NCBI GenBank assembly: GCA_964016885.1
Contig: OZ024745.1
Coordinates: 30,070,001 to 30,134,000, forward strand
Reading direction: 5' to 3'
Source: Eledone cirrhosa
Taxonomy: Eukaryota
DNA length: 64,000 nt
This document shows, piece after piece, positions 2,529 through 64,000 of the stretch. The position numbers were made by a program, and so were the translations under genes. Positions within the stretch are counted from its first letter, which is position 1. Each line of letters starts with the position of its first letter. The notes below the pieces were generated by a model that was not told where the DNA came from, ran no database searches, and worked only from the letters and a program-made list of their open reading frames with translations.

Positions 2529-2530
<2 letters not shown>

Positions 2531-4147
2531 TGTTGCTCCAGTTCACTCATTTGTAGAAATTAGTTGCAATGTCACTAGTGCCAACATGTATTGGCCTTTG
2601 CCTTTCTCTTGGACAACATTGGTAGAATGGAGAGGGGAGACTTATATGCATGGGAAATTGTTTGTCTTCCACATAAACACCATACCCAGGATGGTTCCTT
2701 GGAGGGGAAGTTTCTAGGTACAACTCCCATAGTCATTCATGATAGAAGGGGCTCTTTACCCTTTTTATATATCTATGTATGCATATAGTAAATTTCACAA
2801 AGAAAGTAGGAAATATGCAGGATGAATGTCTTCCTTCCAGGCAGCCCCTGGGCAATGCAATTTCGTACCAAAGGTTGGTATTGCATAATATTGAGATATA
2901 TAGGTTGCACTGCATATGAGACAACACAACATAGACAAAGAGGAGAACATAAATATATATGTATATATAAACCACAATTGAATATGTTATTGTCCCTCAT
3001 TAGACAATAGTGATCTGTAGACAGTTACACACATCTGTAAACAAACCTATATATTTACAACCACACATACACACTATAAGTTAAAAGGAAAAATATCATA
3101 ACCTCAAGGAAACCTCTACAATCCTTTTCCTTTCTTTCTTCCCCCTGTTCCCTCTTTTCCTTGAAATCCTGCAGAAATCAATTCTTTGACAAATTTTTCT
3201 CCCCCCACCCCAAGAATTCCCTTCAATCATGTTTATACATTTTTGTATTTTTATTTTACTTCCCTCCTTTCTTTTCTTGCCTTTATCTACAAACCCTAAA
3301 AACATACATGATAGAAACCTACATACATACACAGGTACACACTCATCACAAGACAAAAGAAAAGCTGTTTATTCCCTCTTAGATATTTTTAGTTCTTTTT
3401 ACAAATCCTGAAAATAACTTGACCTTTTGACACATTAAAACCCCACCTAAATGCACACTCACACTCACACTCACACATTAGAGAACAAAGAATTACCATC
3501 TAGAGTCTAGACCATTTTTATGAATAGAAAAGGAATTTTCTATTTAAACCAAGAGGATTTTCTATTGAATCAATTGGATCCTGATCTGTGGAACCCACTT
3601 CCTTGATCACAACTCCACTTTCACAAAGAACATTTATATATGAAATTTTGACAATAGATTCACATATGTTCCAACTGCCCACAAAATATGAGAACAAACT
3701 TTTTATTTATTATATGATAACATTGACATTCCAATCAAAACCAGTAATATTTGACACAATTTAAATCCATTTAATGTAAAAATTATAAAAAATATTCATT
3801 CTGTCAGATTAAAATGTTAATGCTGGTGCCATGATAAATGGCAACCAGTCCACTGGGTGTTGTGACAAAACTTACCCTCTGCTCACTGTAAGGTGTTTGG
3901 ACTGGTGCCATGACAAAAAAGCAACTAGTTCACTCTGTTAGATGGCACTGCCACAGTCATGATAAAATGCTACTGGTACCTGCATATCTAGTTGATATTA
4001 AGGAGAGCATTCGGCTTTAAAAACAATGCCAGAATGGAATGTATGAGCAAAAAACAGTCATCTGATCTTCCTAACCAGCCTGAGAAGGTGACAACTAACA
4101 CATTTAAGTATATAAAAGTAGACGTAATATGATAATGATAATAATAA

Positions 4148-4219
<72 letters not shown>

Positions 4220-4584
4220 TCATCATCATTTCATTTTACGTCCGCTTTTCCCTGCTTATATATATGTGTTGTTTCCTTGAGCAAGGCACTTTATTTCACA
4301 TTGCTCCAGTTCACTCAGCTGTAGAAATGAGATGATAGGGACTGGAGTCCCTATCATTCCACTGCAAAGTGGTCGTGGAGGTGCCACGGCAAAAAAGCAC
4401 CCAGCACTCACTGTAAATGAGGTTGGTGTTAGGAAGGGCATCTAGCTGTAGAAATCAAGCCAGAATCAGTTCCCGTCCCACCCTTGCAAGCAGGGAAAAG
4501 TGGACGTAAAATGAAATGATGAAAATGAAATGATATATATTCACACACACAAACACACGAATATATAAATTATATTAAACATAC

Positions 4585-4635
4585 CCTCTTCAGGTGTCAG
4601 TTCTACTTTTTTTCTCGAAGCAGCAAGTCGTATTG
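4585..4635 (-). CDS. Micro-exon A1, 51 nt, AIRLAASRKKVELTPEE
   Basis: ttag|CAATAC...GAAGAGG|gtatgt; phase 1-1; the other two frames contain stops. Confidence 0.85.
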
Positions 4636-5629
4636 CTAAAGTTAAACAAAATGGCTTAAATATCATTTGACACAACATATTACATTGACTTTAGCCCCTC
4701 ATTATATTATGTATATTTATAGATCAGTGATTTGCCTTCTTTATGAGGTTGAGTTCCAGTGATGCACTGGGGTCAATTTGATCGACATTCTACTCCCCCA
4801 AAATCTAAATCTGAAACCATTATGTATGGACCCATAACTCCTGATAGAGTCATAGAGACACTAAAGTAAGTTACAGAGTTTCTTGGGCATTTTGTTTAGA
4901 TCTGGTGGAGCCCATCCCCTCTCCAGGTCTGAATAAAAGGGAAGAGTGATAGAGACGAAGTGAGAAAGAGATATTGAGAAAATAAACACTAGTTTTAGAA
5001 AAAAAACTTTTTTTATCAACTGCGAAAGGTTGAATGGCAGAGTAGACCCTGGTAGGATTTGAACTTAGATCATAGAGAATCAGAAGAAATCCTGCAAACT
5101 ATTCTATCCAACATTCTAACAACTCTGCCAATTTGTTGCCTATGTTACGTTTATTATTAAAAATCAAAATCTTTAAATATATTTTTAAATCTGTGCTTCA
5201 CGATTTTTAGTTTTTGCCGATATTCTATGATTTGTGTAGAACTTTACCCCACTTTCGTGTAGTGCTTCCTGGACATCATTTCCTGCCCAACCTACTCTAC
5301 TATCATACCTTACAGTACCAATCAGGAGGATATACAAGTCAAATAGACTTCATCCTCACCATGAGACGAGACAAAAGGTTGTAAATACCAAGTTTTTTCC
5401 TGGGGAGGAATGTACCTCTCAACATAGATTGTCTTGGAAGGGGGTGCAGTGCAGCTGCCAGTAATGTATGTGTAGGGTGTGTGTGAAGTAGTAAAGTTGA
5501 GAATAACTGTTACGGAGTGCTAGTGGAAGGGGTGGGGGGAAGGTCAGGTCACTTTGTAAGTTAAAGTCTCTCTTTCACTATGTATATATATATATACACG
5601 CACAAATATATAAATTATATTAAACATAC

Positions 5630-5680
5630 CTTCTTTATGTGTCAGCACTCTTCTCTTTTCCAAACTAGCAATTAGTTTTT
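5630..5680 (-). CDS. Micro-exon B1, 51 nt, EKLIASLEKRRVLTHKE
   Basis: ttag|...|gtatgt, open phase-1 frame. Confidence 0.85.
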
Positions 5681-6145
5681 CTAAAGTTAAAACAACAAAA
5701 TAGTTTAAATATCATTTGAAACAACATATTACATTGATTTCCGCACTTAATTTTATTATGCACAAAGATCTTTAAATACATATTTAAATCTGTGTTTCTC
5801 AATTTCTATTTCCTGCCAATATTCTATGATTTGTGTATAAGTTTACCCAATTTTGGTGTAGTGCTTCCCAGACATCATTTCCTGCCCACCCTTCCCCACT
5901 ATCATACCTTACAGTACCAACTTGGTGGGTGGGTTTTTTACATCCCCTTCCTCCCTGTGTACTCTTCACCACTATAGTATATGAAATTTTACTGGAAACA
6001 TTATTTAGGGTACAAAAGACTTAGTGAAGGGTTGTGGCTACTACTGACTCAGGTATGGGGGATGACTACATACATTTGTGGGACAAATAAATAACAGATT
6101 ATAAAACATGTAAGAGCTTGACATGCATGTAAATCCCCAGAGACA

Positions 6146-7030
6146 TCTTTGACAACTGCATCATGGAATGTATGAACACTATTGGATTTACCAAGTTCAA
6201 ATCATCCTGAACATTGAACTGCCTTTATCTGTAAAGAGTTCCATTAATATCAATTGGATATTGTTTCTCTCTCTGAAACATGGCTATCTGAGGATGGTCA
6301 GATAGAGTAACCAGAATCAGGATACACATACTACAATGGCTGCTCAGAAAATGAGTGTCATGAATCCGGAGTTGGTTTTGCTCTAAGAACCTCTCTGTTG
6401 CAACATCTGCTGGAACTTCTGTATGGTATCTCCAATCAGATTATGACACATAGGTTGCCACTTCACTTTAACCACATTATGACTTGGGTCAGTGTGTATG
6501 CTCCAACTCTAGTAAGTCCCCAAGAAGGAATAGAGAAATTTTATGTGGATCTGTGATTAGTTTTGAAAAATGTAAAGATGGAAGATAAACCTGTAGTAAT
6601 GGGTGAATTGAATGCTTATATTACATGTGACTTGACTACATGGAGCAGCATAGGTCCTCATGGAATGGAAAAGTGTAATAGCAGTGGATTTCTTCTGCAG
6701 ATGTACCAAGAATTCGATCCTGTCATGGGAAACATGGGAACATCTGGCAACACCGATAATGTGTTAAGAGGATTTTAATGTGATGTGCAAGAGAGAAGAC
6801 TGCATTGGTAAGGACATGTGATGTGTATGGATGATGATGAATCCCAGTGGAGGGAAGCCACAGTAAAGGTAGACCTAGGGAAACTTGGGAAGAGGTGGTG
6901 AGGGCTGATCTCAAATCGCTGAGACTCACAGAGGGGATGAGAAAGTAATACAGCAAGTGGAGAGATGCTATGCTGAAAAAGAACCGTCCAACCTGTGCAA
7001 GCATGGAAAAATGGGCGTGATGGTGATGAT
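6146..7030 (+). mobile_element. Degenerate RTE-type LINE fragments (APE endonuclease piece joined to 3' end); paralogs ~27730-28350 and ~52560-53460
   Basis: ETW, GVGFA, SVYAPT, MG(D/E)LNA, IGPHG remnants; RRLHWYG motif in the paralog; (GAT)n tail. Confidence 0.7.
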
Positions 7031-7051
7031 GATAAATTTTATTAAACTCAC

Positions 7052-7102
7052 CTTCTTCAGTTGGCAGAAAAGTTCCTACACTTGCAGCAGCAAATAGTAT
7101 TT
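7052..7102 (-). CDS. Micro-exon C1, 51 nt, EILFAAASVGTFLPTEE
   Basis: ttag|...|gtgagt (donor variant that is still a consensus 5' splice site). Confidence 0.85.
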
Positions 7103-8614
7103 CTAATTAAAAAAAAATAATAATATCTTATATATCATTTGAAACAACATATTACATTGAGTTTTCCCACTCATTATATTATATTATATATGTTTGTGTG
7201 TGTTTATAGACCTGTACCTCCTGGTAGCGTCATAGGGGTGCTGTAGTGATATATGGCATTTCTTGGGCATTTTGCTTAAGCCTGATGGAACCTATTTCCT
7301 CTCCAGGTCTGAACACAATACATTTCTTCCAGAGTAAAGAAAGAGAGTGATAGAGAGGGTGTAGGAAAGAGACATGGAGGAAGAATCAACTCCAGCACTG
7401 GACTGATACAGTTTTTATTGACCTCGAAAGAATGACTGATAAAGTTGACCTCAGAGGAATTTGATCTCAGAGTACAGAGATCTGGAATAAATACTGCAAA
7501 GCATTCTATTCAATGTTCTAAAATATCTGCCAATTTGATACCTATATATGTATATATATATATATATATTTATACATATGAAAAAGTTATGTATGCATAT
7601 ATATATTTATATATATATATATGATAAAGTTATATCTGTATAAATGCTGTATTATACACCAATATGTATAAATATATACACATATCTGATATGTAGGCAT
7701 GTAAACAAGGTAGAAAGTTTCACTGTAAATTGAAAAAATGAGAAACACAATTGATTTCCAGATCTAATTGGACCCTCATCAAAAGGTATGTTTATCACCC
7801 AACCAACAACAAGAAAACATGCATTTGATGGGTATATATACTCACTTGCTCTTAGTATTATTCAGAAATGGATGTTCTAATTTGCATATAATTAGCATTC
7901 ATGTTGGTAATATATATATTAGGAAGTGTGCTAGCAGCCGAAGTGTACAATAAAGTTATATCTGTATATATACAGTATGTAACTGAGACTGCATCAATAT
8001 AATAACTCCTCTCCCCTCTCTCGAGTTGTTAAATGTTTTGAGGACCTTCTAAGCTGTTTCTAGCTTCATATGTCTTCTCATTAATAGCTATCGGGCACAT
8101 GCACAGGAAATTGGTTTGGTCATTCAAATGTTGTCAATGTTAGCAGTTGCTACTAAAGCTTGGGATTGGTGTGATATGACAGGATCTGTGCACATCTGTA
8201 AGTGTTATTGTTAACCTTGGCAACCTTTGAATGACTGCGCCAATATTGCATGTGGGCACCTGATATGGAATTATTCGTTTGCTTATTTCAGTCAGTCTGA
8301 CACTAGCAATACATGACCACATAAACTCCTCTCCGACGTTCCTTCAGTCTCCCTCTAATGATGGATGAGAAAGCCAAAATATAGGGGTTAATAAGGTAAC
8401 TTCATTGCTGGTTTTCATTTCATTTTACATTTCTTTTTCTTATTTCCTCCCCTCCTCTCAAATCTCAATTCCTCCTACTGCCACCTGATTTTGTTACATG
8501 GAGATTTACCCCTCTGCATTGTAGAGGCTTTCAAAAATGCCCATTTTTACTATTTCACAATGCTTCAAATAAACTTAAACACTCATATATATATATAAAT
8601 TATATTAAACGTAC

Positions 8615-8665
8615 CTTCTTCAGTTGAGAGCATTCCTTCTTTTTTTGCAGCCATAATTAGAATTT
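8615..8665 (-). CDS. Micro-exon D1, 51 nt, EILIMAAKKEGMLSTEE
   Basis: ttag|...|gtacgt, open frame. Confidence 0.85.
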
Positions 8666-8759
8666 CTAATGTTAAAAAAAATTAACATAATGGCTTAAAT
8701 ATCGTTTAAAACCACATATCACATTGAGTCCCCCCCTCATTTTATTATATATATGTATG

Positions 8760-9429
8760 CAGTGGAAGACTGGTAGGTTGCCAGGCAATGGCAAATGGGG
8801 CACTGCAGGGGCCCACTGAAGCATTTTAGGGGCCAATGCTTTGCTTTCAAAAAATATCTTTTAAAAAATGTCTCAGAGAAAGAATAAACATTATTTTTAA
8901 TATAATTAAATAAATAAGTAATGCATTTGGTCAAACAATTCCCTAGGGAATTAATAGAAACCAAAATATATGATAGTGCTAGCAGTTAGAGTCACTGGCT
9001 TACTGTATTCATTCATGTATGCATACATGGACACACATGCACGTATATATATATATATATATACTAGCAGAATGGCCCGGCCTTGCTCGGGATTCTAAAC
9101 ATAGATTGGCATGTTTATCCCTCCTTTCTGAAACAGTACAGAGAAGTACGGAATACCTCGGCCTCGGGATGGTGTCTACATTTTGTGCTTATAAAAAAAT
9201 TTGTCATTGATTACCAGGGTTTTAAAAATATCTCTACACGGATATATATAATTATATATATATATTAAAATAACAGATTAAAGTTTAAGCAAAGAATCGC
9301 TGCTTTCACCCTTAAAAAAATCAATCTGTGAACGCAGAAGTAAATATTTTGAAAAACGTTACACACACTATATATATATATATATAACGATGATGATGAT
9401 GATGATGATGATGATATATGTACACACAC

Positions 9430-9472
<43 letters not shown>

Positions 9473-10641
9473 TTAGCGTCATAATGTCGTAATGCAGACA
9501 GCCAGACATACAGACAGATATTATAAGGGCGCAACATTATGTCTATATATCTATCTAAAAAGAAAGACTAAGAATTATAGAGAGAGATCGCTAAATCGCC
9601 TAATGCGGTCCCTAGGGGATTGAAAATTTGAAATATGTTTTGCTCAAAACACTCACAGGACCATAAGTATTACATGTGTAAAGTTTGAAAACAATCGGTT
9701 GGGTGGTTCTCGAGTTTTAGGGAGTCAGACAGACATTCTCTGTTTTAGATTTATATATATATATATATATACACTTACACATAAACTCGAACTGCGATGA
9801 GCTGCTGGCCAAATAATTTTTGATATCAATGGGTTAAAGACATATGTAAAACCCTTACCATCCTCCATGGAAACGCCTTCTCTATTCGGGGCTGTGGGGA
9901 GGCCAGCACGTGGGACCCCATTTGCTCACCATATGGGGAGGGCGAGAAAGATGGAGGCGATGACAGTGGGAGTTCGGCTTTTCCACGTTCGGATCATATC
10001 ATTGTGGTTGTGTTCATTAAGCAGTTAATGAGTCTGTTTAAGTACAGTAATTATTATATTGCTTATGTATGTTTGAATAACACCATCAATTCATAGTGTT
10101 ATTTTACCAGTAACTATCCCCTTTGCCTTGAAGTTGTCATAATACAAAGGATTTTTATTAGTGGTCAGTTCTTCAGTCTAAAGTCCCCAGGAAGAATGAG
10201 TCAAACAATGTTTGTACAAGTTGAAAACATGTATGCATACATATGTATATAAATCTATATATACACATGTACACACATATACACACTCCCAGATATATAT
10301 ATTGAGAGAGTGTGAAAGACCAAAGTTCATTATTGAAAGTCCCTAGATGTGTATACTTTTTATTGGAGAAGGTAAGACATTCACAATTATTTAAAAATTC
10401 AATTATAACATTCTGTATTAACATTTAGTATTACTGTATACTATCAGTAATACGTACAGTATAATTAGTAAAAAATAAAAAAAATTTTCTGCAAAAATTT
10501 GATTGCACTGTTTTGTTTTCCCTTATGTATTTTTTGAAAATGTTATTTATTCATTATAAAAATTAAACGATAGCATTCTATATATGGGTGGGCCCCCTTT
10601 ATCTCCTGGCAACCAATATTTTTAGATCCAGTCCACCACTG
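8760..10641. mobile_element. Non-autonomous hAT-type DNA transposon with nested insertions
   Basis: TIRs CAGTGGAAGACTGG / CCAGTCCACCACTG (12/14 match), 8-bp TSD TATGTATG (8752-8759, 10642-10649); empty site in unit 2 (~29925). Confidence 0.75.
9063..9752 (-). mobile_element. Helitron-like non-autonomous element nested in the hAT element; related piece at ~55038-55262
   Basis: CTAGT terminus with adjacent CCCG...CGGG hairpin; other end CAGACAGACA...TTTATATA typical of such elements. Confidence 0.5.
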
Positions 10642-11635
10642 TATGTATGTATGGATGTATGGACTCATAATAAAGTCATTGTGACCTACAGCATTTCTTA
10701 AGCATTATGTTTAAGCTTGGCAGAAGCCATCTTCTCTTCAGAATGAAATAAGGCCAATTTCTTTCATAGTAAGAAAAGAGAGTGATAGAATGGAAGTGAG
10801 AAAGAGACATATAGAAAATCGACACCAGTACTAAACTAATAGTAACTATAACTTTTGATTTGTATGGAACATTATCCCCATTTTTTTTTCACTAGAGTAT
10901 ATATATACACCCAGTCTGCACTGAAAAGTAGTTCTATATGTGTCATGACAAAAAGCACCCAGTCCAAACTGTAAAGTGGTCATGTAGGTGTCATGACAAA
11001 AAGCACCCAGTACACTCTGTAAATGTGGTTGGCATTAGGAAGGGCATCCAGCCATAGAAATCAATAAAAAATCAGTTGTATGTGATCAAAACATGGTCCT
11101 CCGACCTGGATCTTTCACAATGAGTCAGCATGTCCGACCCTTTCTAGCATGAAAATGGATTTTAAACAATGATGATATAAACTATTATAAATAGTTTATC
11201 AACACAGTTGCTTGCTAACATATATAAAAATATTTGTGTTTGTACATAACATAAACCTCTCAGTTTCATTTGTCTATTCTATGGAAACTCATGCCACTGA
11301 ATATGTGTGTGTGTGTGAGCATGTGAGTATAGTGGTAGAGCTGGTGATATGACAAAATACATCCAGTTCTTAATCTAAGGAGATAGAAATGGTGACATAA
11401 CAAAAAACACCCAGCCGATTCTGTATGATGGTACTGCCAGAGTCATGATAAAATTTTCCCTGTACATGCCATAAACTGGATGACATTAAGAACGGCATTC
11501 AGCCATTGAAACCATGACAGAATGGAATGTATGAGAGTCATCTGACCTTTCTAACCAGCCTGAGAGGGTGACAACAGGTCTAACCCATGTAAGTATAGAA
11601 AAATAGACATAAAATGATAACAATAATAATGATGA

Positions 11636-11672
<37 letters not shown>

Positions 11673-11818
11673 AGTCTACATGTTAACACATATCTGAGGA
11701 GCTTCCAATTCCAGAGTCAGGTTCAATCATTAATTGATCATTCCTCGAGCTGATCGACAGTGAAACATATGAGATATATAATTAAATATGTGTATGATGC
11801 AACACTGATTCTTTGTTC

Positions 11819-11878
<60 letters not shown>

Positions 11879-11960
11879 ATATATATATATGTATATATAT
11901 ATATGTATATATATGTACACTTAAACATATATATATTATCTTAAATTATATCAAACATAC

Positions 11961-12008
11961 CTTCTTCTGGTGTTACCACTCCTGTTTTTATAGCAGCAAC
12001 TAGTACAT
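11961..12008 (-). CDS. Micro-exon E1, 48 nt, DVLVAAIKTGVVTPEE
   Basis: acag|...|gtatgt, open frame. Confidence 0.85.
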
Positions 12009-12194
12009 CTGTTGATAAAAAAAATTAACACAATGGCTTACATATCATTTGAAACAGCATATTACATTGATGTTCACCCCCTCATTTTATCGTATATATG
12101 TATGTATGGACACATACGTCCTAGTAGAATCATAGGGGTACTGTAGCGATATATTGTATTTCTTGGGTATTTCTTTTAAACTTGGTAGAGCTCA

Positions 12195-52089: not shown

Positions 52090-53481
52090 CTAAAGATAAA
52101 ACAACAACATGGCTTCAATATCATTTTAAACAACATGTTACATTGATTTCCCCACTTAATGTTATTATGCACAAAGATCTTTAAATACATATTTAAACCT
52201 GTGTTTCTCAATTTCTATTTCCTGCCAATATTCTATGATTTGTGTATAAGTTTACCCAATTTTGGTGTAGTGTTTCCCAGACATCATTTCCTGCCCACCC
52301 TTCCCCACTATCATACCTTACAGTACCAACTTGGTGGGTGGGTTTTTTACATCCCCTTCCTCCCTGTGTACTCTCCACCACTATAGTATATGAAATTTTA
52401 CTGGAAACATTATTTAGGGTACAAAAGACTTAGTGAAGGGTTGTGGCTACTACTGACTCAGGTATGGGGGATGACTACATACATTTGTGTGACAAATAAA
52501 CAACAGAATATAAAACATGTAAGAGATTGACATGCATGTAAAATCCCCAGAGACATCTTTGACAACTGTATCATGGAATGTATGAACACTATTGGATTTC
52601 CCAAGCTCAAATCATCCTGAACATTGAACTGCCTTTATCTGTAAAGAGTTCCATTAATATCAATTGGATATTGCTGCTCTCTCTGAAACATGGCTATCTG
52701 AGGATGGTCAGATAGAGTAACCAGAATCAGGATACACATTCTACAATGGTTGCTCAGAAAATGAGCGTTTTGAAGCCGGAGTTGGTTTTGCTCTAAGAAC
52801 CTCTCTGGTGCAACATCTGCTGGAACTTCTGTATGGTATCTCCAATCAGATTATGACACTTAGGTTGCCACTTCACTTTCATCACAGTATCACTTGGGTC
52901 AGTGTGTATGCTCCAACTCTAGTAAGTCCCCAAGAAGAAATAGAGAAATTTTATATGGATCTGTGAATAGTTTTGAAAAATGTAAAGATGGAAGATAAAC
53001 CTGTAGTAATGGGTGATTTGAATGCTTATATTACATGTGACTTGACTAACTACATGGAGCAGCATAGGTCCTCATGGAATGGAAAAGTGTAATAGCAGTG
53101 GATTTCTTCTGCAGATGTACCAAGAATCCCATCCTGCTATGGAAAACATGGGAACATGTGGCAATATTGATAATATGTTAAGAGGAATTTGAAGTTGTGT
53201 GCAAGAGAGAAGACTGCATTGGTATGGACATGGGATGTGTGTGGATGATGATTGCTGGGTGAAGAAGTGCCTGGAAATCCCAGTGGAGGGGAGCCACAGT
53301 AGAGGTAGACATAGGAAGACCTGGACATGGGCCTAGGTGGTGAGGACTGATCCCAAATTGCTGAGACTCACAGAGGTGATGAGAAAGGAATACAGCAAGT
53401 GGAGAGTTGAAAAGAACCGTCCAACCCATGCAAGCATGGAAAAATAGACGTGATGATGATGATTAATTTTATGAAACATAC

Positions 53482-53532
53482 CTTCTTCAGCTGGCGATAA
53501 TCTTCCTACTTTTGCAGCAGCAAATAGTATTT
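53482..53532 (-). CDS. Micro-exon C3, 51 nt, EILFAAAKVGRLSPAEE
   Basis: ttag|...|gtatgt, open frame. Confidence 0.85.
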
Positions 53533-54820
53533 CTAATGAAAAAAAATAATAATGTCTTATATATCATTTGAAACAACATATTACATTGAGTTTCCACCTC
53601 ATTTTATTATATTATTGAGCTCAGAGTACAGAGAACTGGAATGAATACTGCAAAGCATTCTATTCAACATTCTAAAATCTCTGCCAATTTGACACCTATA
53701 TAGGTATGTATGTATATATATATTTATACATATAAAGTTATGTATATAATAATATATATGATAAAATTTTATCTGTATAAATTCTGTATTATACACCAAC
53801 ATGTATAAATATATACACATATCTGATATGTAAGCATGTAAACATGCCAGAAAATACAAATATCCAGATCCAGATCTAATTGGACTCTCATCAAAAGGTG
53901 TGTTTACCATCCAATCAACAAGAAAACATGCATTTGATGGGTGTATATACTCATTTGCTGTTAGTATTATTCAGAAATGGATGTTCTAATTTGCATATAA
54001 TTGCCATTCATGCTAGTAATATATATATTAGGAAGTGTGCTAGCAGCCGAAGTGTACAATAAAGTTATATCTGTATAAATACAGTATGTAACTGAGACTG
54101 CATCAATATAATAACTCCTCCCCCCTCTCATTTTTATTTTTATTTTTATTTGCAGTTTTTTCTTTTATTCTGTCTTTATTCAGATCTCCGAACTCTATTG
54201 TTGATGAAGGGCAAATGCCCAACACGTAGACTGTTTCACTCTCTTTTAAGCATGAAACTAATAAGACATAGTTAATGCATCCTTTTGTTTGTTTTTGTAT
54301 TCTTGATATATATATATAGTTAATTAATCAAATTAATTTCAGATTGAGTTGTTAAGCTGTTTCTAGCTTCATATGTCTTCTCATTAATAGCTATCAAGCA
54401 TGCGCATATGTAATCATTTTTGTTATTCAAAGGTTGTCAATGTTAGCAGTCGCTACTAAAGCTTGGGATTGGTGTGATATGGCAGGGTCTGTGCACATCT
54501 GTAAGTATTATTGTTAACCTTTGCGACCTTTGAATGACTGCGCCAATATTGCATGTGGGCACCTGATATGGAATTATTTGGTTGCTTATTTCAGTCAGTC
54601 TGACACTAGCAATACATGACCACATAAACTCTTCTCCGACGTTCCTTCAGTCTCCCTCTAATGATGGATGAGAAAGCCAAAATATAGGGGCTAATAAGGT
54701 AACTTCATCACTGGTTTTCATTTCATTTTACATTTCTTTTTCTTATTTCCTCCTGCATTGTAGAGGTTTCCCAAAACGACCATTTTTACTATTCCACAAT
54801 GCTTCAAGCAAACTTAAACA

Positions 54821-54892
<72 letters not shown>

Positions 54893-54921
54893 TATATATA
54901 TATAAATTGTTTTAAACATAC

Positions 54922-54972
54922 CTTCTTCAGCTGACAACAGTCCTTCTTTTTTTGCAGCCACAAGTAGGATTC
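54922..54972 (-). CDS. Micro-exon D3, 51 nt, GILLVAAKKEGLLSAEE
   Basis: ttag|...|gtatgt, open frame. Confidence 0.85.
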
Positions 54973-55455
54973 CTAATGTTTAAAAAAATTAACATAATGG
55001 CTTAAATATCATTTGAAACCATATATCACATTGAGTTTTCCCTTCATTTAATTATATACTACCAGAATGGCCCGGCGTTCCTCGGAATTTGCTCTAGGGT
55101 TCTTATAAATTTGATATATATTTACCCTTATCGAGCCTCGTGAAATAAATGAGTTTGTTTATATTTTGTTAATGTGTATGCAAAAATATCTGTACACGAA
55201 TATATAATTATATATATATATATATTTATAACAGTACAGAGAAGTACGGAATACCTCGGCCTACGGCATTTTTTAAGCCTTTTGTTTAAATCTGGCAGAG
55301 ACCAGTTCAGAATGAAATAAAACCAATTTTTTCAAAAGTAAGAAAAGAGAGTGATAGAGAGGAAGTGAGAAAAAGACAGAGAATATTGACAGCAGTACTA
55401 AACTAATAGTAACTATAACTTTTGATTTGTATGGAACATTATCCCCCTTTTATTC

Positions 55456-57258
55456 ACACAGAATTGATTCTATTAAGGATTCTAATGCTGTGCACGTCCA
55501 CTCTGATAAAACTGGCAATCTATATCAAGTGGAGCGCAGTACTTACCATCAACTGCTACATAATGCTGTAACTAAGGATTACCGGAAAACCAATCGGAGC
55601 GTCATTAATGACATCAACGATGCTGGATTTAAAATCACTTGTGAACTCAACATCCAGGACCGGACTGAACCTCTGGACCCTATTTCTCCCCTCTTTACCC
55701 TGAAGGATCACAAACCCAATTTTGCCAACAACCCCTCTATTTGGCTAATTAACCCTACGAAGTCTGATTTAGGTAGACTTAGTAAAAAGATTTTAGATAG
55801 AATTATACCTGAAATTAGAAGCTTGGCCTCTTTTGCACCGTGGAATAATTTTTTCGCGGTGATTGATTGGTTCAACGGCATATGCAACAAGGAACATTTC
55901 CGTTTTACCCAATTCGACATAAATAACTACTACTCCTCCATCACTTTACCAATTCTTCTTAGAGCTATCAATTTCGCTAAAACGCTCACGGTGTTAAGGA
56001 TTTCGAGGTTGATGTCATCCTCCATGCCCGTAAATCGGTGATTAATTTTGACGACTCTATTTGGATAAAAAAATCTAATAGTACCCTATTTGACGTGAGT
56101 ATGGGTGCCAGCGATTTGGTGGAGGTTACAGATCTTATCGGCCTTTTCCTTCTTTTCTCTATCAAGGAAGAATTCCCCAACGTGGGCGGTGGTTTGTACC
56201 ATGATGACGGTCTTTTGACCATGACAAAGTGTGGTCCACACATTTGCGACAGGTTTAGAAAAGAACTTACAGCCTTCTATAAAGGCTTCAACCTCTCCAT
56301 ACAGGTTGAGGCCAACCTCTCGGTCGTTAATTACCTCAACGTTACCCTCAATTTGTCGAATGGCTTGCACTACCCGTAGAGCAAGTCGAATAATACACTT
56401 AATTACATAAGTAAGCATTCTAACCATTCTGCCAACATAACCAAGAACCTGGTAAGAAACGTTTCTTTGAGGCTTTCCAGTCTATCTACAAATGAGCATA
56501 TTTTCACCGACCATTCCACATATTACAATGAAGCTCTTGTTTGGAGTGGATTTATTGATAAGGTAGCATATACTAAGTATGAGCCTAAACCAAGGAAAAA
56601 TAGATCCCGACGCATTATATGGTATAACCCACCATATAATATGGAGGTGGCCATACCATTAGCTAAGATCTTTCTCTCCCTTATTAAGAAGCATTTCCCC
56701 TCAGCACATAAATATAATAACATTTTTAATAGAAATACCATTAAAATATCTTACTCTATGACTCCTAACTTTGCACATAACATCACTGCTTCAAATTTAG
56801 CTAAATTACCTAGCCGTAGGAACACGTGCAACCCCGTAGCTAATACTAACTGTAATTGTAGGAATTGGGTTGACTGCCCTCTATCCGGGAAATGCCCCTC
56901 CAGTAACATTGTCTACAAATGAAAGGTCGAAACACCCACATCTAGTAGGGCCTACATAGGGTTAACCATCAATACATCCAAGCAGCGTCTTTACATGCAC
57001 ACCCATTCTTTTCTTAACCCTTTAAGAAGGAATATGACATCACTGTCAGCTTATATCTAGAGTCTAAAAGACAACCACACCCAATATAGGTTACACTGGG
57101 AGATCCTAGCTAAAGCTAGAGCGTATAACGGAAATAAAAGACCATGCGATCTTTGCGCTGCTGAAGCACTGGAAATACTCTACGCCAATGATCACATCTT
57201 AAACAAAAAATCTGAGGCAATTTCGGCTTGTAAACACAAATTGCATAAAACCTTTTAA
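55456..57258 (+). mobile_element. Penelope-like element, RT + GIY-YIG, disabled
   Basis: LKDHKPNF, LINPTKS, QFDINNYYSSI, MGA, YHDDG, NYLNVT, IIWYNPPY, CNCR..CPLSGKC; empty site in units 1 and 2. Confidence 0.9.
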
Positions 57259-58641
57259 TAAATATATATATATATATACATATACCTAGTCTGCACTGTA
57301 AATTGGTTCTATAGGTGTCACGACAAAAAACACCCAGTCCACACTGTAAGGTGGCCATATAGGTGTCATGACAAAAAACACCCAGTCCAAACAGTAAAGT
57401 TGTCATGTAGATGTTATGACAAAAAGCACCCAGTGCATATTCTAAAGTGGTCATGTAAGTGTCATGAGAAAAAGCACCCAGTACACTCTGAAAATGTGGT
57501 TGGCATTAGGAAGGACATCCAGCTATAGAAATGAGTAAAAAATCAGATCTGTGTCATCTAAACATGGTCCTCCAGCCTGGATCTCTCACAATGGGTCAGC
57601 ATGTCCTACCCTTGCTAGCATGACAATGGATGTTAAACGATGATGATGATGATAATAATGATATAAACTATTAAAAATAGTTTATCAACACAGTTGCTTG
57701 CTAACATTTTTAATAATATTTGGGTTTGTACATAACATAAACCTCTCAGTTTCCTTTGTCTATTCTATGGAAATTAAATATGTGTGTGTGTACTTGAGTG
57801 TATATTGGTAGAGCTGGTGATATGACAAAAAGCATCCAATTCTCAATGTAAGGAGATAGAAATGGTGACATAACAAAAAACACCCAGCTGATTCTGTAAG
57901 ATGGTACTGCCAGAGTCATGATAAAATTCTCCCTGTACATGCCATAAACTGAATGACATTAAGAACGGCATTCAGCCATAGAAACCATGCCAGAATGGAA
58001 TGTATGAGAGTCATCTGACCTTTCTAACCAGCTTGAGAGGGTGACAACAGAAAAATAATGATGAGGATATATATATATATGCAAGTCTACATGTTAACAT
58101 GTATCTGAGGAGCTTCCAATTCTAGAGTGATATTCTATCGTTAATCGATTGTTCCTCGAGCTGATCGGCAGTGAAACATATGTAATATGTAATTAAATAT
58201 ATGTATGATGCACCACTGATTCTTTGTCCCTTATATATATATATATATACAAGCCGGAGCTGAAGCATATAAACAATATGCTCCACCCCTCCCACTGCAA
58301 AGTGGTCGTGGAGGTGCCACGGAAAAAAAAGCACCCAGCACTCACTGTAAAGTGGATGTGTAGACGCCACAGAAAAAAAAGCACCCAGCACTCACTGTAA
58401 ATGAGGTTGGTGTTAGGAAGGGCATCCAGCTGTAGAAATGAGGCCAGAATCAGTTCCCGTTTGAGCAAGACAAAGTCAGCCTACAACAGAACAACCTGTC
58501 TAACCCATGCTAGTGTGGAAGAACAGACTTAAAACGGTGATGATGATTATGATGATGATGATGGTATATATATATATATACATATATATATATGTACACT
58601 TAAACATATACATAAATTATCTTAAAATATATCAAACATAC

Positions 58642-58689
58642 CTTCTTCTGGTGTTACCACTCCTGTTTTTATAGCAGCAAGTAGTACAT
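58642..58689 (-). CDS. Micro-exon E3, 48 nt, DVLLAAIKTGVVTPEE
   Basis: tcag|...|gtatgt, open frame. Confidence 0.85.
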
Positions 58690-60958
58690 CTGATGTTAAA
58701 AAAAATTAACATAATGGCTTACATATCATTGGAAACATTGATGTCACCCCCCCCTCATTTTAACATATATATATGTATGTATGGACACATACCTCCTAGT
58801 AGAATCATGGGGGCACTGTAGTGATATATAGTATTTCTTGGGTATTTCATTTAAACTTGGTAGAGCAGAGCTCTGTAAAAGTGTATGTACATGTCTTACT
58901 ACCAGCACCAACACAGCTTTAGAAACCAGGCCCGGAAAAATGCTACAATACTTTCCAACTGCACATGGAACCTCTGCGACAATAAATTCATCTATGAACT
59001 GAAATGGAGTGTCTTGTCCCAAGCTTAACCTTACACCAGGGGCCACCAACATGCAATTTATGCTCTCAAGAGACCATCCAAATTTTGTCTGCCAAGAAAC
59101 AACTACTTAATAGAAAGAGCTAATTTGTTACTTTGTGCAAACACCAAACTTACAAGACCTACCATAATGACCCAGGTGTGTAAGACTATTTCCCAACATT
59201 TATTACACATATCCACACAGGCGCATATACCCCTGTACGTGTACACAGTTCATGTTCACACACAACCATGTCTCTACCATAAAACCCACCAACAGTTTCC
59301 ACAAAATCACACTGAGAATCAGTATCCAAATAGATCCTCAACACATGTACAAACTCTTGCATTCATGGACACTAGGACACATAGCAGACATCTTTACATA
59401 ATATTATAGAAACATGCATATTTTTGAAGACAGATACACAAACATTTAGATATCAACCAAAGCCAATCAGCACCCCCAACACCAACACTATACACATACA
59501 CCCAGAAATAGGCTGGTATAACAACACCAATCTAACTGCTACACAACAACAACACTCACTCAGGCACTCCATTACAGAAAAACAACAACCATTCATATGC
59601 GAACCAGGCCACATACACATGCATGCACTGAAATCATAATCTAACAAAAGTGCACAACAAATACAAAATTTCAATACTACAATCTCTCTCTCTCACACAC
59701 GCACACATACCCTTACATGCTCATTGGCAGACACAGGCACACCCACATATACACATGAACATACACACCTATGCACTCACAACATTTCATAACACACACA
59801 TGTCAACACTTGTCTTACACACCCCATCAAGTACACATAACACTGAAATCTTTACCAAAATAACAACACTCACCCACACACATGCTCACATACACACACA
59901 CTCAATTTTATACTGAATTTACTTATATTTAGAATAATTTACACAGAAGTAACACTGCAGAACATATCAATTACAACAACATGCACTTACATGCAAACAC
60001 ATGCATATGCAACCTTATATACAAACCTAATGTAGCTTTAGAACAATACACGTATACATGTAAATACAAACATATGCCGGTAAAACAAAAGCACAAATAT
60101 ATTTTCTCACAACACTCACCCCATACCCCACAACAAATACAACAAACACAGTGACAACAACCCTACATCTCCAAAACAACAACAATCACAATACTGACAA
60201 GACAGTTAGTAGATATTTAATAAAACAAAAAAATAATAGGAAGGTCAGTGGTTTTGTTGATATGGGTGGGGGCATACAAAATAAGTAACTGGGTACATGT
60301 GTGTGTAGTGTCTGTGTGTAGTCCTGCTAAAATCTCTGATCCCTCCAATGCACCTTTGGAAACTACCACACACACACCAACTCAAGATGACATAGGAAAA
60401 ACATACATTCTTCATCCCTTGACAATTCTTCACCACTCCCAAACTACAATATGTCAAACCCATATTACACATTGACAATGAAACATTCACACACATACAC
60501 ACACACACACACACACAACTAATCCTTGAGAATACAATGTATAAACAATTGATTATAGACCCTACAATAATTGTTTCTACTTTTGGCACAAGGCCAGCAA
60601 TTACCCAGTACATTATTGGTACATTATTTTATCGACCCCGTAAGGATGAAAGGCAAAGTTAACCTCCAGGGGATTTGAACTCAGACCATAAAGGGCCGTA
60701 ACTATGCTAGAAAGCATGGTGTCCAATCCTCTTCCAATACTGCCAATTCACTCCCCCCCCCCTATATAGACCCTACAATAATGACCTTCAAAGGGCCAAT
60801 ATCCCCTTCTTAACCACTTATCTACTTACTCCACATGACAATCACTTCAGGCCACACCCATGATGAGAAGCTTATTTACAGCAGGGAGATATATCTCCAG
60901 TTTGGAATTTGCTGCTGAAACAGAAAGACCTCAGCCAATGGGCCCCAACTCGCTAATA

Positions 60959-61691
60959 TCATCATCGTCATCATCATCAACGTTTAACGTCCGTGTTCCA
61001 CGCTTGCATGGGTTTGGACGGGGGTTTTCCCACTTGAGGCAAGAGTGATTATCTTGCTCGCATAGGACTATCTGGCGGGTTTTCTACAGCTGGATGCCCT
61101 TCCTAACACCAACCACATTTACAGTGTGGGGCTGGGAGGTTTTTACCGTGTTGCCTACACGGCCACATTACAGCGTGGACTGTCTGGTGGGTTTTCTACA
61201 GCTGGATGCCCTTCCTAACACCAACCACATTTACAGTGTGGGGCTGGGAGGTTTTTACCGTGTTGCCTACACGGCCACATTACAGCGTGAACTGTGTGTT
61301 TTTTTGTCGTGACACCTACACGATCTCATTTGTTTCGGCCTGGATGTTGTGGCACCAACATAACTTTACATTGAAAGGGGCGGTGTGGATGGGGTGGGGT
61401 GGTGAGACGGGGTGTATTTTGTTAGAGATGCCTACTGACTGTAGTAGGTTTTACTTTGTATTTAGGTAAGGCGGGTCTTCTCTATTACTGAGTACCGCCA
61501 AAGGTCTCGGTCCAGTGACATTGTCTTGGAGAGGTGTAAGTGTGTGAGGTCGGAATTTATCAGCTCGTCCGAGGTTTTTCTGGGTCTGCCTATTCCATGG
61601 CTACCGTCTATTTTTATTGCCCTGCACTTTTTTATACAGCTGTCGTCTTTCATGCGCATCACGTGACCATACCAACGTAGCCTTCTCTCGA
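60959..61691 (-). mobile_element. 5'-truncated RTE LINE with a ~120-bp tandem duplication in the 3' UTR
   Basis: Reverse complement of 35491-36105; 61078-61190 repeated. Confidence 0.88.
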
Positions 61692-61780
61692 ATATATATA
61701 TATATATATATTATACATATATATATACATATACATATATATACACACACACACAGATATATAAATGATATTAAACATAC

Positions 61781-61825
61781 CTTTTCTAGTTTCCAGCACT
61801 TTAGTTTTTGCAGCAGCAAGTATTT
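61781..61825 (-). CDS. Micro-exon F3, 45 nt, EILAAAKTKVLETRK
   Basis: tcag|...|gtatgt; one codon shorter than F1/F2, frame kept. Confidence 0.85.
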
Positions 61826-62257
61826 CTGATGTTAGAAAAATTAACAAAATGGCTTAAATATCATTTGAAACAGCATATTGACTTTTCTCCTTTTATTATA
61901 TTATATATATATATGGACCCCAATCCCATCACTCCTCCAGATCTGAATAAAATCTATTTCCTCCAGTGTTATGAAAGAGATTGATAAAGAGGAAGTGAGG
62001 AAGAGATATGGAGGAAAAATCAACCCCAGTTCTAGATGAATATTTTTTTTATCAACCTCGAAAGAACAAATGGCAAAGTTGAACTTGGTGGGATTTGAAT
62101 TCAGAGCACAGAGAACCAAAACAAATCTTGCAAAGCAGTCTATCTGCCTTCTAACAACTCTGCCAATTTACTGCATATATTGTTTATATATATATTAAAA
62201 AAAAAGAAAGAATCTTTAAATACACTTTTCCATATCTATTTTTACCTATTATCTATG

Positions 62258-62295
<38 letters not shown>

Positions 62296-62301
<6 letters not shown>

Positions 62302-62450
62302 GGAGCTTCTACAGGACTAGTACTGTTTCATTCAGATGAAATCTTCAGGAAGCTGGGTGTCATATTAAGTTCTGAACTTAATATGACACCCAGCTTCCTG
62401 AAGATTTCATCTGAATGAAACAGTACTAGTCCTGTAGAAGCTCCTTCTAT
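62296..62450. repeat. Perfect palindrome (77-bp arms, 1-nt centre at 62373), probably an inverted Penelope pseudo-LTR
   Basis: Exact reverse-complement arms containing CTGAAGA-N12-GAAAC. Confidence 0.85.
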
Positions 62451-62528
62451 AAAATAAAAATTTTTTACTCTGCCATGTATTGAGTACCTTACTTACTGTG
62501 GTTATCCCCGACTCAACCCGGGACCTAC

Positions 62529-62578
<50 letters not shown>

Positions 62579-63369
62579 ACTAGAGATTGGTTAACATATA
62601 AATAAACATGAATAATCACAGGAGATAATTTTTACAAGTGTGTAACCACACATAGCTAGGTAGGTAACTAAATAAAGTTGACCAGAACTTCAAAAATAGA
62701 TACCTTATAATATGATTAATCTTTCCTGTATATATTCCATTAAAGAAATATATTTCACCAATTAATCAGATGGTAAACCAAAGAAGTGGAGACTTGGATT
62801 TTCAACAAGGAAGATTATTCATGTTTATTTATATGTTAATCAATCTCTAGTTATTATAAAATGCTCGGACCTACTCGTTAGAATCTTAGAGCTTATTTTG
62901 TGGGTGATATGGCGCATGTCTTTCTGGCATGACACCCATAATTTTGATTTAGATTAAATTTGTTTGATTTATCTTAATTTTGGATATATATATATATATA
63001 TAAAAATATACACACACACACTCTGTAAGGTCATAGTGCTGGTCCCATAAAAAAAAGCGCGCTATCCAATCTGTTACGAGATAAAACTGGTAACATGATG
63101 AAAAACACCCAGCTGATTCTGTAAGATGGTACTGCCAGAGTCATTATAAAATGGTCCCTGTGCAAGCCATGAATTGGATGACATTAGGAAGGGCATTCAG
63201 CCATAGAAACCATGCTAGAATGGAATGTATGAGCAGAAGACAGTCATCTGACCTTCCTACCCAGCCACAGGATGTGACAACATGTCTGACACATACAACA
63301 TCGAAAATAGACATAATATGCTAATCGAATAATAATGAGGATATATATATATATATGTATTAAACATAC

Positions 63370-63420
63370 CATTTTCCTGCGTCCACACTCCTTCCATTTT
63401 TGCAGCACTAAGTATTATAT
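63370..63420 (-). CDS. Micro-exon G3, 51 nt, DIILSAAKMEGVWTQEN
   Basis: ttag|...|gtatgt, open frame. Confidence 0.85.
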
Positions 63421-63519
63421 CTAATGTTGAAAAAATTAACAAAATAGCTTAAATAGCATTTGAAACAACATATTACATTGACTTTCCCTTCCTCATAGTA
63501 TATATATATATATATAAGG

Positions 63520-64000
63520 CTGGCGAAACATGGAAAAGAGACACCAGCTGGTCTGAAAACACTGTACCCACAACAACTGACAATAAAGAAACTGAAAAAA
63601 CTCTGGGAAACTAAATCAGAACAACCTGCCATCCCCTGCACATAATCATAGACTGGAATCAAGGTACAAATTGTTGTCCTTGAATGCACGTAGTCTATGC
63701 AATAAGATTCATCTTTTTCCCTCCTCCGTCAAAAGTATCAACCCTGACTTCATTACAGTCACGGAAACTTGGGCACATCCCTTACTCTGTGATGGGGTTT
63801 TCAGCAGGACTGGCTACAACCTGTTTCGTAAAGACCGCATTAATCGTGGTGGTGGTGGTGTAATGGTCTACGTTCGGTCAAATCTGTCGGCAATTCCTTG
63901 TGCTGATTTGAACCAATCACAGCAGGAAGTTTTTTTCTGGGATATACATATGACCATGTCAACACTGCTACTTGGAGTCGTTTACCGTCCCCCCAAATTA
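63520..64000 (+). mobile_element. Start of a CR1/L2-group LINE ORF2 (APE endonuclease), runs off window
   Basis: LNARSLCNK, ITVTETW, GYNLFRKDR..RGGGGVMVYV, LGVVYRPP. Confidence 0.82.

Follow-up and report, generated by a model that had tools for sequence, protein, structure and literature searches.

A two-level array of 18 nine-exon blocks, predicted to encode a repeat rod, probably within one giant gene of Eledone cirrhosa

The 64,000-nt stretch of DNA analyzed here (the window) carries on its minus strand 25 micro-exons of 45-51 nt in the form AG...GTATGT, all in phase 1-1, that fall into nine classes in the order A-I, A-I, A-G (Table 1). Joined in transcript order, these exons have no stop in one frame, versus 43 and 26 in the others, and with high confidence they are predicted to be coding exons. 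Because every exon is a multiple of three nucleotides and symmetric in phase, the frame survives duplication of any exon or block.

Table 1. Positions of the repeat exons and associated features in the window
Feature	Position	Strand	Remarks
Class A exon, copy 1	4585..4635	-	51 nt, phase 1-1, IRLAASRKKVELTPEE
Class B exon, copy 1	5630..5680	-	51 nt; opens a unit in transcript order
Class C exon, copy 1	7052..7102	-	51 nt; donor GTGAGT
Class D exon, copy 1	8615..8665	-	51 nt; donor GTACGT
Class E exon, copy 1	11961..12008	-	48 nt
Class F exon, copy 1	14741..14788	-	48 nt
Class G exon, copy 1	15976..16026	-	51 nt
Class H exon, copy 1	19878..19925	-	48 nt; 45 nt possible via tandem AG
Class I exon, copy 1	20720..20770	-	51 nt
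Class A exon, copy 2	25215..25265	-	
Class B exon, copy 2	27217..27267	-	
Class C exon, copy 2	28370..28420	-	
Class D exon, copy 2	29784..29834	-	
Class E exon, copy 2	36582..36629	-	
Class F exon, copy 2	38771..38818	-	48 nt
Class G exon, copy 2	40060..40110	-	
Class H exon, copy 2	42917..42964	-	
Class I exon, copy 2	43733..43783	-	
Class A exon, copy 3	50090..50140	-	
Class B exon, copy 3	52039..52089	-	
Class C exon, copy 3	53482..53532	-	
Class D exon, copy 3	54922..54972	-	
Class E exon, copy 3	58642..58689	-	
Class F exon, copy 3	61781..61825	-	45 nt, shorter by one codon
Class G exon, copy 3	63370..63420	-	
Shared monomer block, example	4819..4955 (end approximate)	+	old dispersed repeat, putatively fixed in the ancestral monomer
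SINE fragment after block, example	5006..5150	-	B-box-like GTTCAAATCC on minus strand
Orphan half H exon	18952..19063	-	acceptor, no donor; 100% identical to 19889-20000; not counted
I-A intron patch	2519..3700	.	96-98% identical in most units vs ~91% for introns overall
Host gene, covering the whole window (predicted)	1..64000	-	gene at least C5:30,019,239-30,741,575

The two-level architecture is real and extends far beyond the window. A profile search of 664 kb gives 169 matches, 167 of them to intact exons, the remainder being the orphan half-exon and a fragment of 37 nt. The whole array (C5:30,043,598-30,471,361) comprises 18 x 9 = 162 classed exons over 428 kb and five unclassed monomers at its 5' end; these five were labelled C-G by position, and they are left out of all unit statistics (162 of 167 exons used) because the tree places them outside those classes. 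In transcript order a unit reads B-A-I-H-G-F-E-D-C, and the nine-class order is unbroken in all 18 units, with no exon lost or decayed. The array introns are transposon-rich, with a median of 1.8 kb; splice sites are near-consensus, with the donor GTATGT in 146 of 167 exons. There is no N gap inside the 18-unit array, the sole gap lying at C5:30,497,929.

The first-pass annotation, made from the window, described nine monomers A-I (51, 51, 51, 51, 48, 48, 51, 48, and 51 nt, 450 nt in all) duplicated at least three times as a unit of 21-23 kb. The monomer lengths hold for the first two units; the third-unit F exon in the window is 45 nt, and the unit exon total ranges from 444 to 450 nt across the array. 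The unit has indeed been multiplied, and three copies understated an array of 18. A length of 21-23 kb is typical, with spacing in the window of 20.6-25.1 kb (A-A 20,630 and 24,875; I-I 23,013) and over the whole array of 16.3-38.1 kb (median 22.8 kb, 17 intervals). The same annotation proposed that a single-exon monomer was amplified and diverged into nine classes before the block was multiplied, and expected monomers to cluster by letter; they do so, in nine clades of 18, one per class, in trees of the exons alone and of exons plus flanks, and flank homology agrees. Identity is 0.80-0.93 within classes and 0.49-0.75 between them.

Common to all nine classes is a core of ~200 bp consisting of the donor flank, exon, and acceptor-side block, which across classes are 85%, 67%, and 78% alike, respectively. 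A microsatellite adjoins the donor in 145 of 162 copies. The wider ~1-kb context suggested at first is only partly shared: the core is universal, and the full context is kept in a third of copies. The shared block is present in 99 of 162 copies (17/25 in the window), none of them of class B or H, and in 54 of 162 copies (8/25 in the window) it is accompanied by the SINE; the literal CTCCTGGTAGAG has one exact occurrence and 10 with up to two mismatches. On the other side, the RTE/SINE tail is common to only ~2.5-3.5 of the eight other classes (in classes A, E, G, H, and I). The SINE fragment at 5006..5150 is putatively of tRNA origin, judging from its B-box-like motif GTTCAAATCC. The shared block is also dispersed, with 15 matches outside the array (8 plus, 7 minus), whereas 106 of 107 matches inside the array lie on one strand, as expected had the block belonged to the ancestral monomer. 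The ~1-kb monomer itself has been reconstructed; a minority of copies keep its outer parts.

A two-step origin of the array is highly probable. The tree and the homology of the flanks suggest that the array began with a single symmetric phase-1 micro-exon, lying in an E/K-rich linker, whose duplication together with its flanks gave 14 or more monomers, now diverged to ~67% identity; a run of nine monomers would then have been multiplied to 18 units by unequal crossing-over; finally, transposon insertions may have altered unit lengths, and the units would have become mosaic through patchy gene conversion. For each unit pair 7-15 kb of intron is alignable at 84-94.5%, showing that introns were duplicated along with exons. 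Exon identity between units is 82-95% (88.0% overall), intron identity is 91.4% overall, and every unit pair stays at or below 95% in exons and in introns. Identity matrices of the different classes show almost no correlation with one another (Spearman -0.12 to 0.44); units 9 and 10 are alike in E, F, and G at 97.6-97.8%.

The host gene spans at least 722 kb of the minus strand (C5:30,019,239-30,741,575 at least), with the array inside. The Octopus bimaculoides protein A0A0L8H5Y7 (XP_014775115.1), which has a HEAT-like start and an E/K-rich body, is collinear around the array: aa 37-306 and 614-734 align in order to C5:30,741,575-30,704,525, aa 1119-1543 to C5:30,028,159-30,027,026, and aa 1634-1680 to C5:30,019,905-30,019,239, all on the minus strand, and an E/K-rich repeat exon is present. 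This protein and an Argonauta hians protein (GAB1604762.1), both uncharacterised, are the only two matches among 1.84 billion representatives and are likely orthologues, matching at 36% over the 3' exon and 45-73% over the 5' exons. The array very probably belongs to the same gene as these flanking exons, as judged from position and phase rather than from a transcript. In run X4, a contig of depth 3 departs from the big 3' exon precisely at its GT; the 30 letters left over align with the following exon, 1.5 kb away, and the frame is kept. This junction lies outside the array. Among the runs listed none is recorded as RNA, and X4 is treated as RNA solely on account of the spliced join. Run X1 reads through unspliced.

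No Pfam family passes the cut-off in A0A0L8H5Y7, whose RefSeq name 'CCDC173-like' is automatic; HEAT_2 appears at a weak E of 0.094. The 16-17 aa repeat is absent from the O. bimaculoides model and the A. hians fragment (best domain score <0 bits), models that may be incomplete. Word-based searches, which distant relatives escape, found no non-cephalopod homologue with aa 40-310 (near lengths) or aa 36-300 (shorter). Among structural resources, the ESM Atlas returns HEAT-family look-alikes at 0.89 or below plus chance-level matches, PDB sequence searches return one weak match (E 0.25) to a designed protein, a 16-position repeat profile has no PDB match at E<=10, and the single-sequence fold of the 3' exon has a pLDDT of 49.5. 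Literature searches for the locus or for octopus exon arrays, covering few subscription papers and no supplements, returned nothing on this locus; PMC11703226 and PMC12198301 have no bearing on it.

The repeat is E/K/A/L/V/I-rich, and each copy runs through an acidic cap, a hydrophobic helix, a basic pair, Gly, a hydrophobic residue, and Thr-Pro; from inspection of the repeat, short capped helices following one another in a chain are predicted. Our main reading, to which we give a probability of about 70%, is that the 18 nine-exon blocks are spliced into a predicted repeat rod of ~2,700 residues inside one 722-kb gene. The repeat segment would likely act as a long helical spacer or a multivalent binding rod.

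That selection has preserved splice sites, reading frame, and a few core positions is strongly supported. All 167 exons keep AG and GT, and there is no stop in 2,769 codons; at intron rates, drift would be expected to produce ~14.5 splice changes and 6.2 stops (~21 together) and ~24 frameshifted exons. Columns common to all classes change at 3.1%, versus 8.4% elsewhere.

Between units, exons have diverged more than introns, and diversifying selection on the repeat exons is reasonably likely. Between units dN is 0.144 and dS 0.092, with a tree-free pairwise ratio of 1.56. Under MGK+F1X4, ω is 1.70 (2ΔlnL 17.5 versus ω=1) and under MG+F3X4 2ΔlnL is 7.6, whereas GY+F, one of the three codon models, does not reject ω=1 (2ΔlnL 0.6); in these tests the braced value is taken to fix ω, and recombination can inflate tree-based estimates. 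Relative to intron rates, with CpG sites excluded, non-synonymous changes run at 2.02x (95% 1.65-2.50) and synonymous changes at 1.05x (0.78-1.37), the intron rate being lowered by filtering of columns for alignability; counted by distinct alleles, the ratio falls to 1.43 (1.14-1.89) and the synonymous rate rises to 1.37x. A dN/dS of about 1.4-2, with excess amino-acid change at non-core codons, is thus supported by most tests but not all. Two of the G>T changes tallied would turn the consensus codon into a stop, although every copy is free of stops.

The divergence could also be that of a passive linker under relaxed selection, in which only frame and splicing are selected and ω >1 is an artefact of synonymous constraint (splicing enhancers), biased baselines, or between-class conversion. 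The GY+F result is in keeping with this, third positions are 81% A/T, and intron identity ranges from ~85% to 99% between 200-bp windows, making the neutral baseline uneven. Derived alleles match another class slightly too often (152/277 versus 132 expected), so that some between-class conversion may contribute, and 5 of the 162 exons contain candidate conversion tracts, eight in all. We nevertheless consider a passive linker somewhat unlikely: synonymous rates match those of near-exon introns rather than falling below them, the non-synonymous excess spans 11 of 12 base-change types (it is about level for T>C), and the pairwise ratio requires no tree.

A different product would result if the 167 exons were alternatively spliced cassettes, titin-PEVK-like or Dscam-like, giving isoforms variable in length and sequence. 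Any subset keeps the frame, the exons are tiny beside their introns, the flanks are more alike across classes than the exons, and the TTN PEVK region is described as extensively alternatively spliced (PMC9142044). Such use is unlikely, given the near-consensus splice sites and a class order that is perfect 18 times over, which suggests that order matters in the product. Improbable, too, is the combined proposal of a library of 167 frame-compatible micro-exons made in two duplication rounds, kept diverse by positive selection and variably included; if true, the gene would encode a lineage-specific hypervariable repeat protein, e.g. in sperm, as a diversity generator rather than a ruler.

The first-pass annotation further suggested that growth of the super-repeat may be ongoing and copy-number polymorphic, which is not borne out by the comparison of units. 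Recent events are small, namely the 112-bp, 100%-identical half-exon duplicate and conversion-like patches; intron patches are 96-99% identical across units, the 3' end of the gene has a 99.4%-identical duplicate, and TTN and NEB blocks differ in copy number among people (PMC9142044, PMC7863720). Among 1,364 same-class 1-kb pairs, however, none reaches 99% and one reaches 98%; with no near-identical unit pair, recent gain of a whole unit is argued against, unless the assembly collapsed such a pair. Continued expansion is therefore improbable, and the array is probably no longer growing wholesale. The conserved intron patch at 2519..3700 contains no long ORF and is not a known RNA, since all 20 Rfam matches in window positions 2300-25300, mostly to microsatellite-type miRNA models, fall under the gathering score. 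Lastly, that the array is a satellite-like, non-coding segmental repeat, or an artefact of assembly that resembles exons, is almost certainly the wrong explanation, as, despite the transposon-rich introns, there are no disruptions against ~45 expected, every unit is distinct within gap-free sequence, and exons collinear with a known protein model flank the array on both sides.

Exon super-repeats that grew by block duplication are known from a few giant vertebrate genes, where the recent copies are almost the same in sequence. Among known systems, the nine-exon triplicate of titin PEVK and the NBPF triplets come closest. The TTN segmental duplication (exons 172-180, 181-189, and 190-198) is, like the Eledone array, a nine-exon block in tandem, and it too is set in a giant gene, within an E/V/K-rich region (PMC9142044); as described there, titin has three near-identical copies, in contrast to 18 at 84-95% here. 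The Eledone repeat is not PEVK because of its composition, with 70 Pro in 2,769; the two genes are not homologous, the orthologue is without an Ig or Fn3 domain, and neither it nor the 3' exon has a Pfam match to Ig/Fn3, PEVK, or nebulin modules. In NBPF20, exon-bearing monomers of ~1-1.6 kb, ~18-20% diverged, were likewise amplified as a higher-order unit, the Olduvai (DUF1220) 3-mer, with 19 copies ~1.6% apart (PMC9584774); by that account NBPF has two exons per monomer and three monomers per unit, versus one and nine here, and the Eledone copies are 5-16% apart and without an Olduvai domain. In nebulin, short simple repeats are grouped in a seven-module super-repeat that was block-duplicated to 21-31 copies (PMC7863720, PMC1553488), which parallels the Eledone array. 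In the chicken gene as described, four exons make seven modules with borders inside modules, whereas here one exon is one repeat, and there is no period-7 organisation. Near-identical copies like those of the TTN duplication and the NEB triplicate are absent from the array (0/1,364 pairs at 99%). Grass CENP-C resembles it in that exons were repeatedly duplicated in tandem and the duplicated part shows positive selection (PMC549713); that unrelated protein has, in the same source, two to three copies of exon pairs, as opposed to 162 exons at two levels.

In the proteins WDR87 and WDR97 a HEAT-like region is preceded by a short motif, and long E/K-rich repeats come after it. The host gene may be WDR87-like in this respect. 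Membership is not assigned, as there is no WD40 upstream and no sequence match to any WDR87 in the word-based and ESM Atlas searches: of 1,634 minus-strand ORFs over 292 kb upstream, 494 pass the filters, and the 300 longest of these, a set that passes over repeat-masked sequence and short exons, contain no WD40, nor does A0A0L8H5Y7. Literature searches on WDR87/97 in molluscs (few subscription papers, no supplements) found nothing on this locus. WDR87 is described as acting with CFAP47 in sperm mid-piece assembly (PMC11506864). The function that we tentatively favour is a structural one in sperm or cilia, judging from fast evolution, E/K-rich repeats, and a possible resemblance to WDR87.

The locus offers a strict one-exon-one-repeat 9-mer in 18 copies with all introns readable, and therefore a single locus lets one trace both duplication levels, the layering of transposons, and the patches of conversion. 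Coding positions outpace adjoining introns and synonymous sites, whereas arrays of this kind would be expected to undergo concerted homogenisation; the contrast points to a protein repeat under pressure to remain diverse. The gene is predicted to encode at least 4,600 aa, and its 45-51 nt exons are likely missed by gene finders; this suggests that the short public cephalopod models of the host gene may hide lineage-specific arrays.

Within the window, a motif scan combined with splice-site reading finds 25 short minus-strand exons, all AG/GT-bounded and in phase 1-1, arranged in the class order A-I, A-I, A-G. The class lengths proposed in the first-pass annotation (51, 51, 51, 51, 48, 48, 51, 48, and 51 nt for A to I) are borne out except in the third F exon, which is 45 nt; a tandem AG in the H exon also permits a 45-nt reading. 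Read in transcript order, the 25 exons are free of stops in one frame, whereas the other two frames contain 43 and 26. In a self-BLAST the window aligns collinearly with itself at offsets of ~19-27 kb and 45-47 kb, in blocks that are 79-94% identical. An orphan H half-exon with an acceptor and no donor is also present (100% identical to window 19889-20000), and the H region has a second partial copy (table).

A profile built from these 25 exons with their flanks was applied to 29.97-31.03 Mb of C5, the same contig in genome numbering, where the window occupies 30,070,001-30,134,000. Its 169 matches in the first 664 kb share the minus-strand orientation. Intact exons account for 167 of them (111 of 51 nt, 43 of 48 nt, and 13 of 45 nt); the remaining two are the orphan H half-exon of the window and a 37-nt fragment. 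No additional repeat exons were found in the next 400 kb upstream, and the best 40 candidates of each genome search, which give lower bounds, all lie at the C5 locus. Trees of the exons alone and of the exons with flanks both resolve nine clades of exactly 18 members, the clustering by letter class that the first-pass annotation had proposed as a check. The two-level architecture it described is real, and its extent is larger than reported: the array runs to 18 complete units, each ordered B-A-I-H-G-F-E-D-C in the transcript, and spans 427,764 bp. Unit coding length is 444-450 nt (exactly 450 in 6 of 18) and unit spacing 16.3-38.1 kb. Five unclassed monomers lie on the 5' side and one very diverged monomer, possibly LINE-damaged, on the 3' side, an arrangement reminiscent of satellite higher-order arrays with bordering monomers. 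The diverged 48-nt exon near the big 3' exon carries the donor flank of the array; its acceptor side falls in a repeat of high copy number, probably part of a LINE.

Features of the array, the host gene, and their surroundings (C5, genome numbering; window, window positions; L-prefixed positions, the same features in segment numbering)
Feature	Position	Strand	Remark
Host gene, A0A0L8H5Y7 aa 37-306 and 614-734	C5:30,741,575-30,704,525	minus	upstream of array, in order
Host gene, A0A0L8H5Y7 aa 1119-1680	C5:30,028,159-30,019,239	minus	downstream of array, in order
3.1-kb exon	C5:30,711,009-30,714,130 (L068:7009-10000 into L069)	minus	between the 5' parts
Diverged repeat-type exon, 48 nt	C5:30,028,361-30,028,408 (L046:8361-8408)	minus	120 bp before big 3' exon
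Last-exon duplicate, first segment	C5:29,995,597-30,005,918 vs 30,016,538-30,026,870		99.4% identical
Last-exon duplicate, second segment	C5:29,987,168-29,995,587 vs 30,005,837-30,014,257		98.6% identical
Satellite, ~90 kb	C5:30,542,000-30,630,700		host-gene intron between 5' exons and array
Sole N gap	C5:30,497,929-30,498,128
Helitron-like and LTR-retrotransposon-like ORF fragments	C5:30,503,600-30,507,500 and 30,029,100-30,032,500		host-gene introns; by eye
UDP-glucose pyrophosphorylase ORF	C5:30,810,528-30,812,093 (L078:6528-8093)	minus	522 codons, intronless
311-bp tandem array	C5:30,421,526-30,424,996		inside one I-A intron
Orphan H half-exon	window 18952-19063
Second partial copy of H region	C5:30,184,132-195
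LINE fragment	window 1-2528		ends in (ATT)n tail
Conserved intron patch	window 2519-3700

All copies retain AG and GT, and none is interrupted by a stop or a frameshift. Exon boundaries were set by looking for AG and GT at 3n spacing, a procedure that could have skipped broken copies; it skipped none, because every position of the 18 x 9 order is filled. At the rates seen in near-exon intron columns, ~14.5 changes at splice dinucleotides and 6.2 stops would be expected (the chance of seeing none is P about 1e-9), along with ~24 exons carrying a frameshifting indel. The predicted repeat exons are under selection.

All nine classes have in common ~200 bp around the exon; the wider context of the proposed ~1-kb ancestral monomer is patchy and partly gone in most copies. 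The microsatellite is kept in 145 of 162 copies and the shared block in 99, and block and SINE occur together in only 54. The shared block is an old dispersed repeat; it has one orientation in 106 of 107 matches in the array and is split 8 vs 7 outside it. Given this orientation bias, the common core, and a shortest intron of 693 bp, an ancestral monomer measuring some 0.7-1.3 kb can fairly be inferred. The sequence supports an origin in two levels, from a single monomer and then from a nine-exon block.

Between-unit identity is 82-95% for exons and 84-94.5% for introns. Among 1,364 same-class 1-kb comparisons six reach 97%, one reaches 98%, and none reaches 99%, so the assembly does not support the suggestion that the array is still expanding. 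A unit's nearest neighbour changes from class to class, and the identity matrices of the classes show almost no correlation with one another; unequal exchange and gene conversion that break within units would be expected to leave this pattern. The youngest multi-exon tract is common to units 9 and 10, and the most homogeneous class with flanks is H (94%). Several intron patches (one in the table; others in the introns of E, B, and H) show 96-99% identity across most units vs ~91% overall, and probably represent conversion sweeps; they have no Rfam match and no long ORF, and an old dispersed repeat is the source of their first 200 bp. The array thus seems to have done its wholesale growing long ago, with local exchange continuing until recently. 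A LINE fragment is inserted at the edge of the tabulated patch in this unit only; its terminal 78 bp are 100% identical to three copies near C5:30.66-30.67 Mb. The copies of the 311-bp tandem array are 99.7-100% identical, with an inversion.

Exons diverge more than introns between units (mean identity 88.0 vs 91.4%), and between classes they are 67% identical vs 78-85% for the flanks. Pairwise dN is 0.144 and dS 0.092; omega is 1.70 (2dlnL 17.5) under MGK+F1X4, and 2dlnL is 7.6 under MG+F3X4 and only 0.6 under GY+F. When codon change is calibrated against introns, by base and with CpG sites left out, the non-synonymous rate is 2.02x (1.65-2.50) and the synonymous rate 1.05x (0.78-1.37); their ratio is 1.95 (1.44-2.64) when taken by frequency and 1.43 (1.14-1.89) when taken by distinct allele. 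Interclass conversion seems to contribute little: 152 of 277 derived alleles match another class vs 132 expected, and there are eight candidate tracts in five exons. Diversifying selection may act on the repeat, at a probability of roughly 0.6; its main rival is relaxed selection read against a biased baseline.

The host gene was recognized from a 416-codon ORF 15 kb downstream that is 36% identical to Octopus bimaculoides XP_014775115.1, whose cluster includes the longer model A0A0L8H5Y7 (1,681 aa); Argonauta hians GAB1604762.1 is the sole other match among 1.84 billion representatives. With an extent of at least 722,337 bp, the gene is predicted from the sum of its matched parts to encode at least 4,600 aa; further short exon candidates in apparent phase 1 lie on both flanks of the array. 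A second repeat expansion, here within a single exon, is seen in the 3.1-kb exon: a 20-residue E/K/M/D repeat, separate from that of the array, is present in 29 near-perfect copies. At roughly the corresponding position, the O. bimaculoides model carries a short repeat that differs from it. The 16-17 aa repeat was found in neither A0A0L8H5Y7 nor GAB1604762.1, so the array is either lineage-specific or missed in the public models. In sequencing run X4, one contig breaks off where the big 3' exon has its donor, resumes in frame in the next exon, 1.5 kb away, and shows splicing of the 3' part only; the 30 letters past the junction also match a duplicate of that next exon further downstream. Run X1 reads through the same donor unspliced. 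The duplicated last exons (table) are either a recent tandem duplication or a haplotype retained in the assembly. The UDP-glucose pyrophosphorylase ORF (PF01704, E 7.8e-190), 69 kb upstream of the first matched host exon, is either a retrocopy or an intron-free gene.

A literature search, mostly without subscription papers, found neither this locus nor any comparable cephalopod array described. Comparable systems are described for NBPF20, with 19 three-monomer units ~1.6% apart (PMC9584774), for nebulin, which grows by seven-module blocks on four exons (PMC1553488, PMC7863720), and for grass CENP-C, with duplicated exons under positive selection (PMC549713). The array arose in the same way and has no domain in common with them; what sets it apart is a 9-mer with strictly one repeat per exon, the age and mosaic make-up of its 18 copies, and a surplus of amino-acid changes.

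A sperm or ciliary role for the host protein is the leading but tentative guess, from fast evolution, E/K-rich repeats, and a presumed likeness to WDR87, a protein described as acting in sperm mid-piece assembly (PMC11506864). The WD40 test of the host gene, covering the 300 longest of 494 filtered minus-strand ORFs over 292 kb upstream, is negative, and the gene is therefore not assigned to WDR87. The repeat consensus is I-L-L-A-A-A-K-K-E-G-V-L-T-P-E-E plus a split codon; its strongest hydropathy periods are 8.3 and 16.6 residues, and the 2,769 residues have a pI of 5.4 and a net charge of -61. No PDB chain matching the repeat was found. Established helix-capping patterns include T-x-x-E at the start and Gly at the end, and their occurrence here suggests a chain of short helices. 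Placed between a putative HEAT-like head (a weak match) and a helical tail (a low-confidence model), such a chain may serve as an extensible spacer, or as a rod with many weak binding sites.
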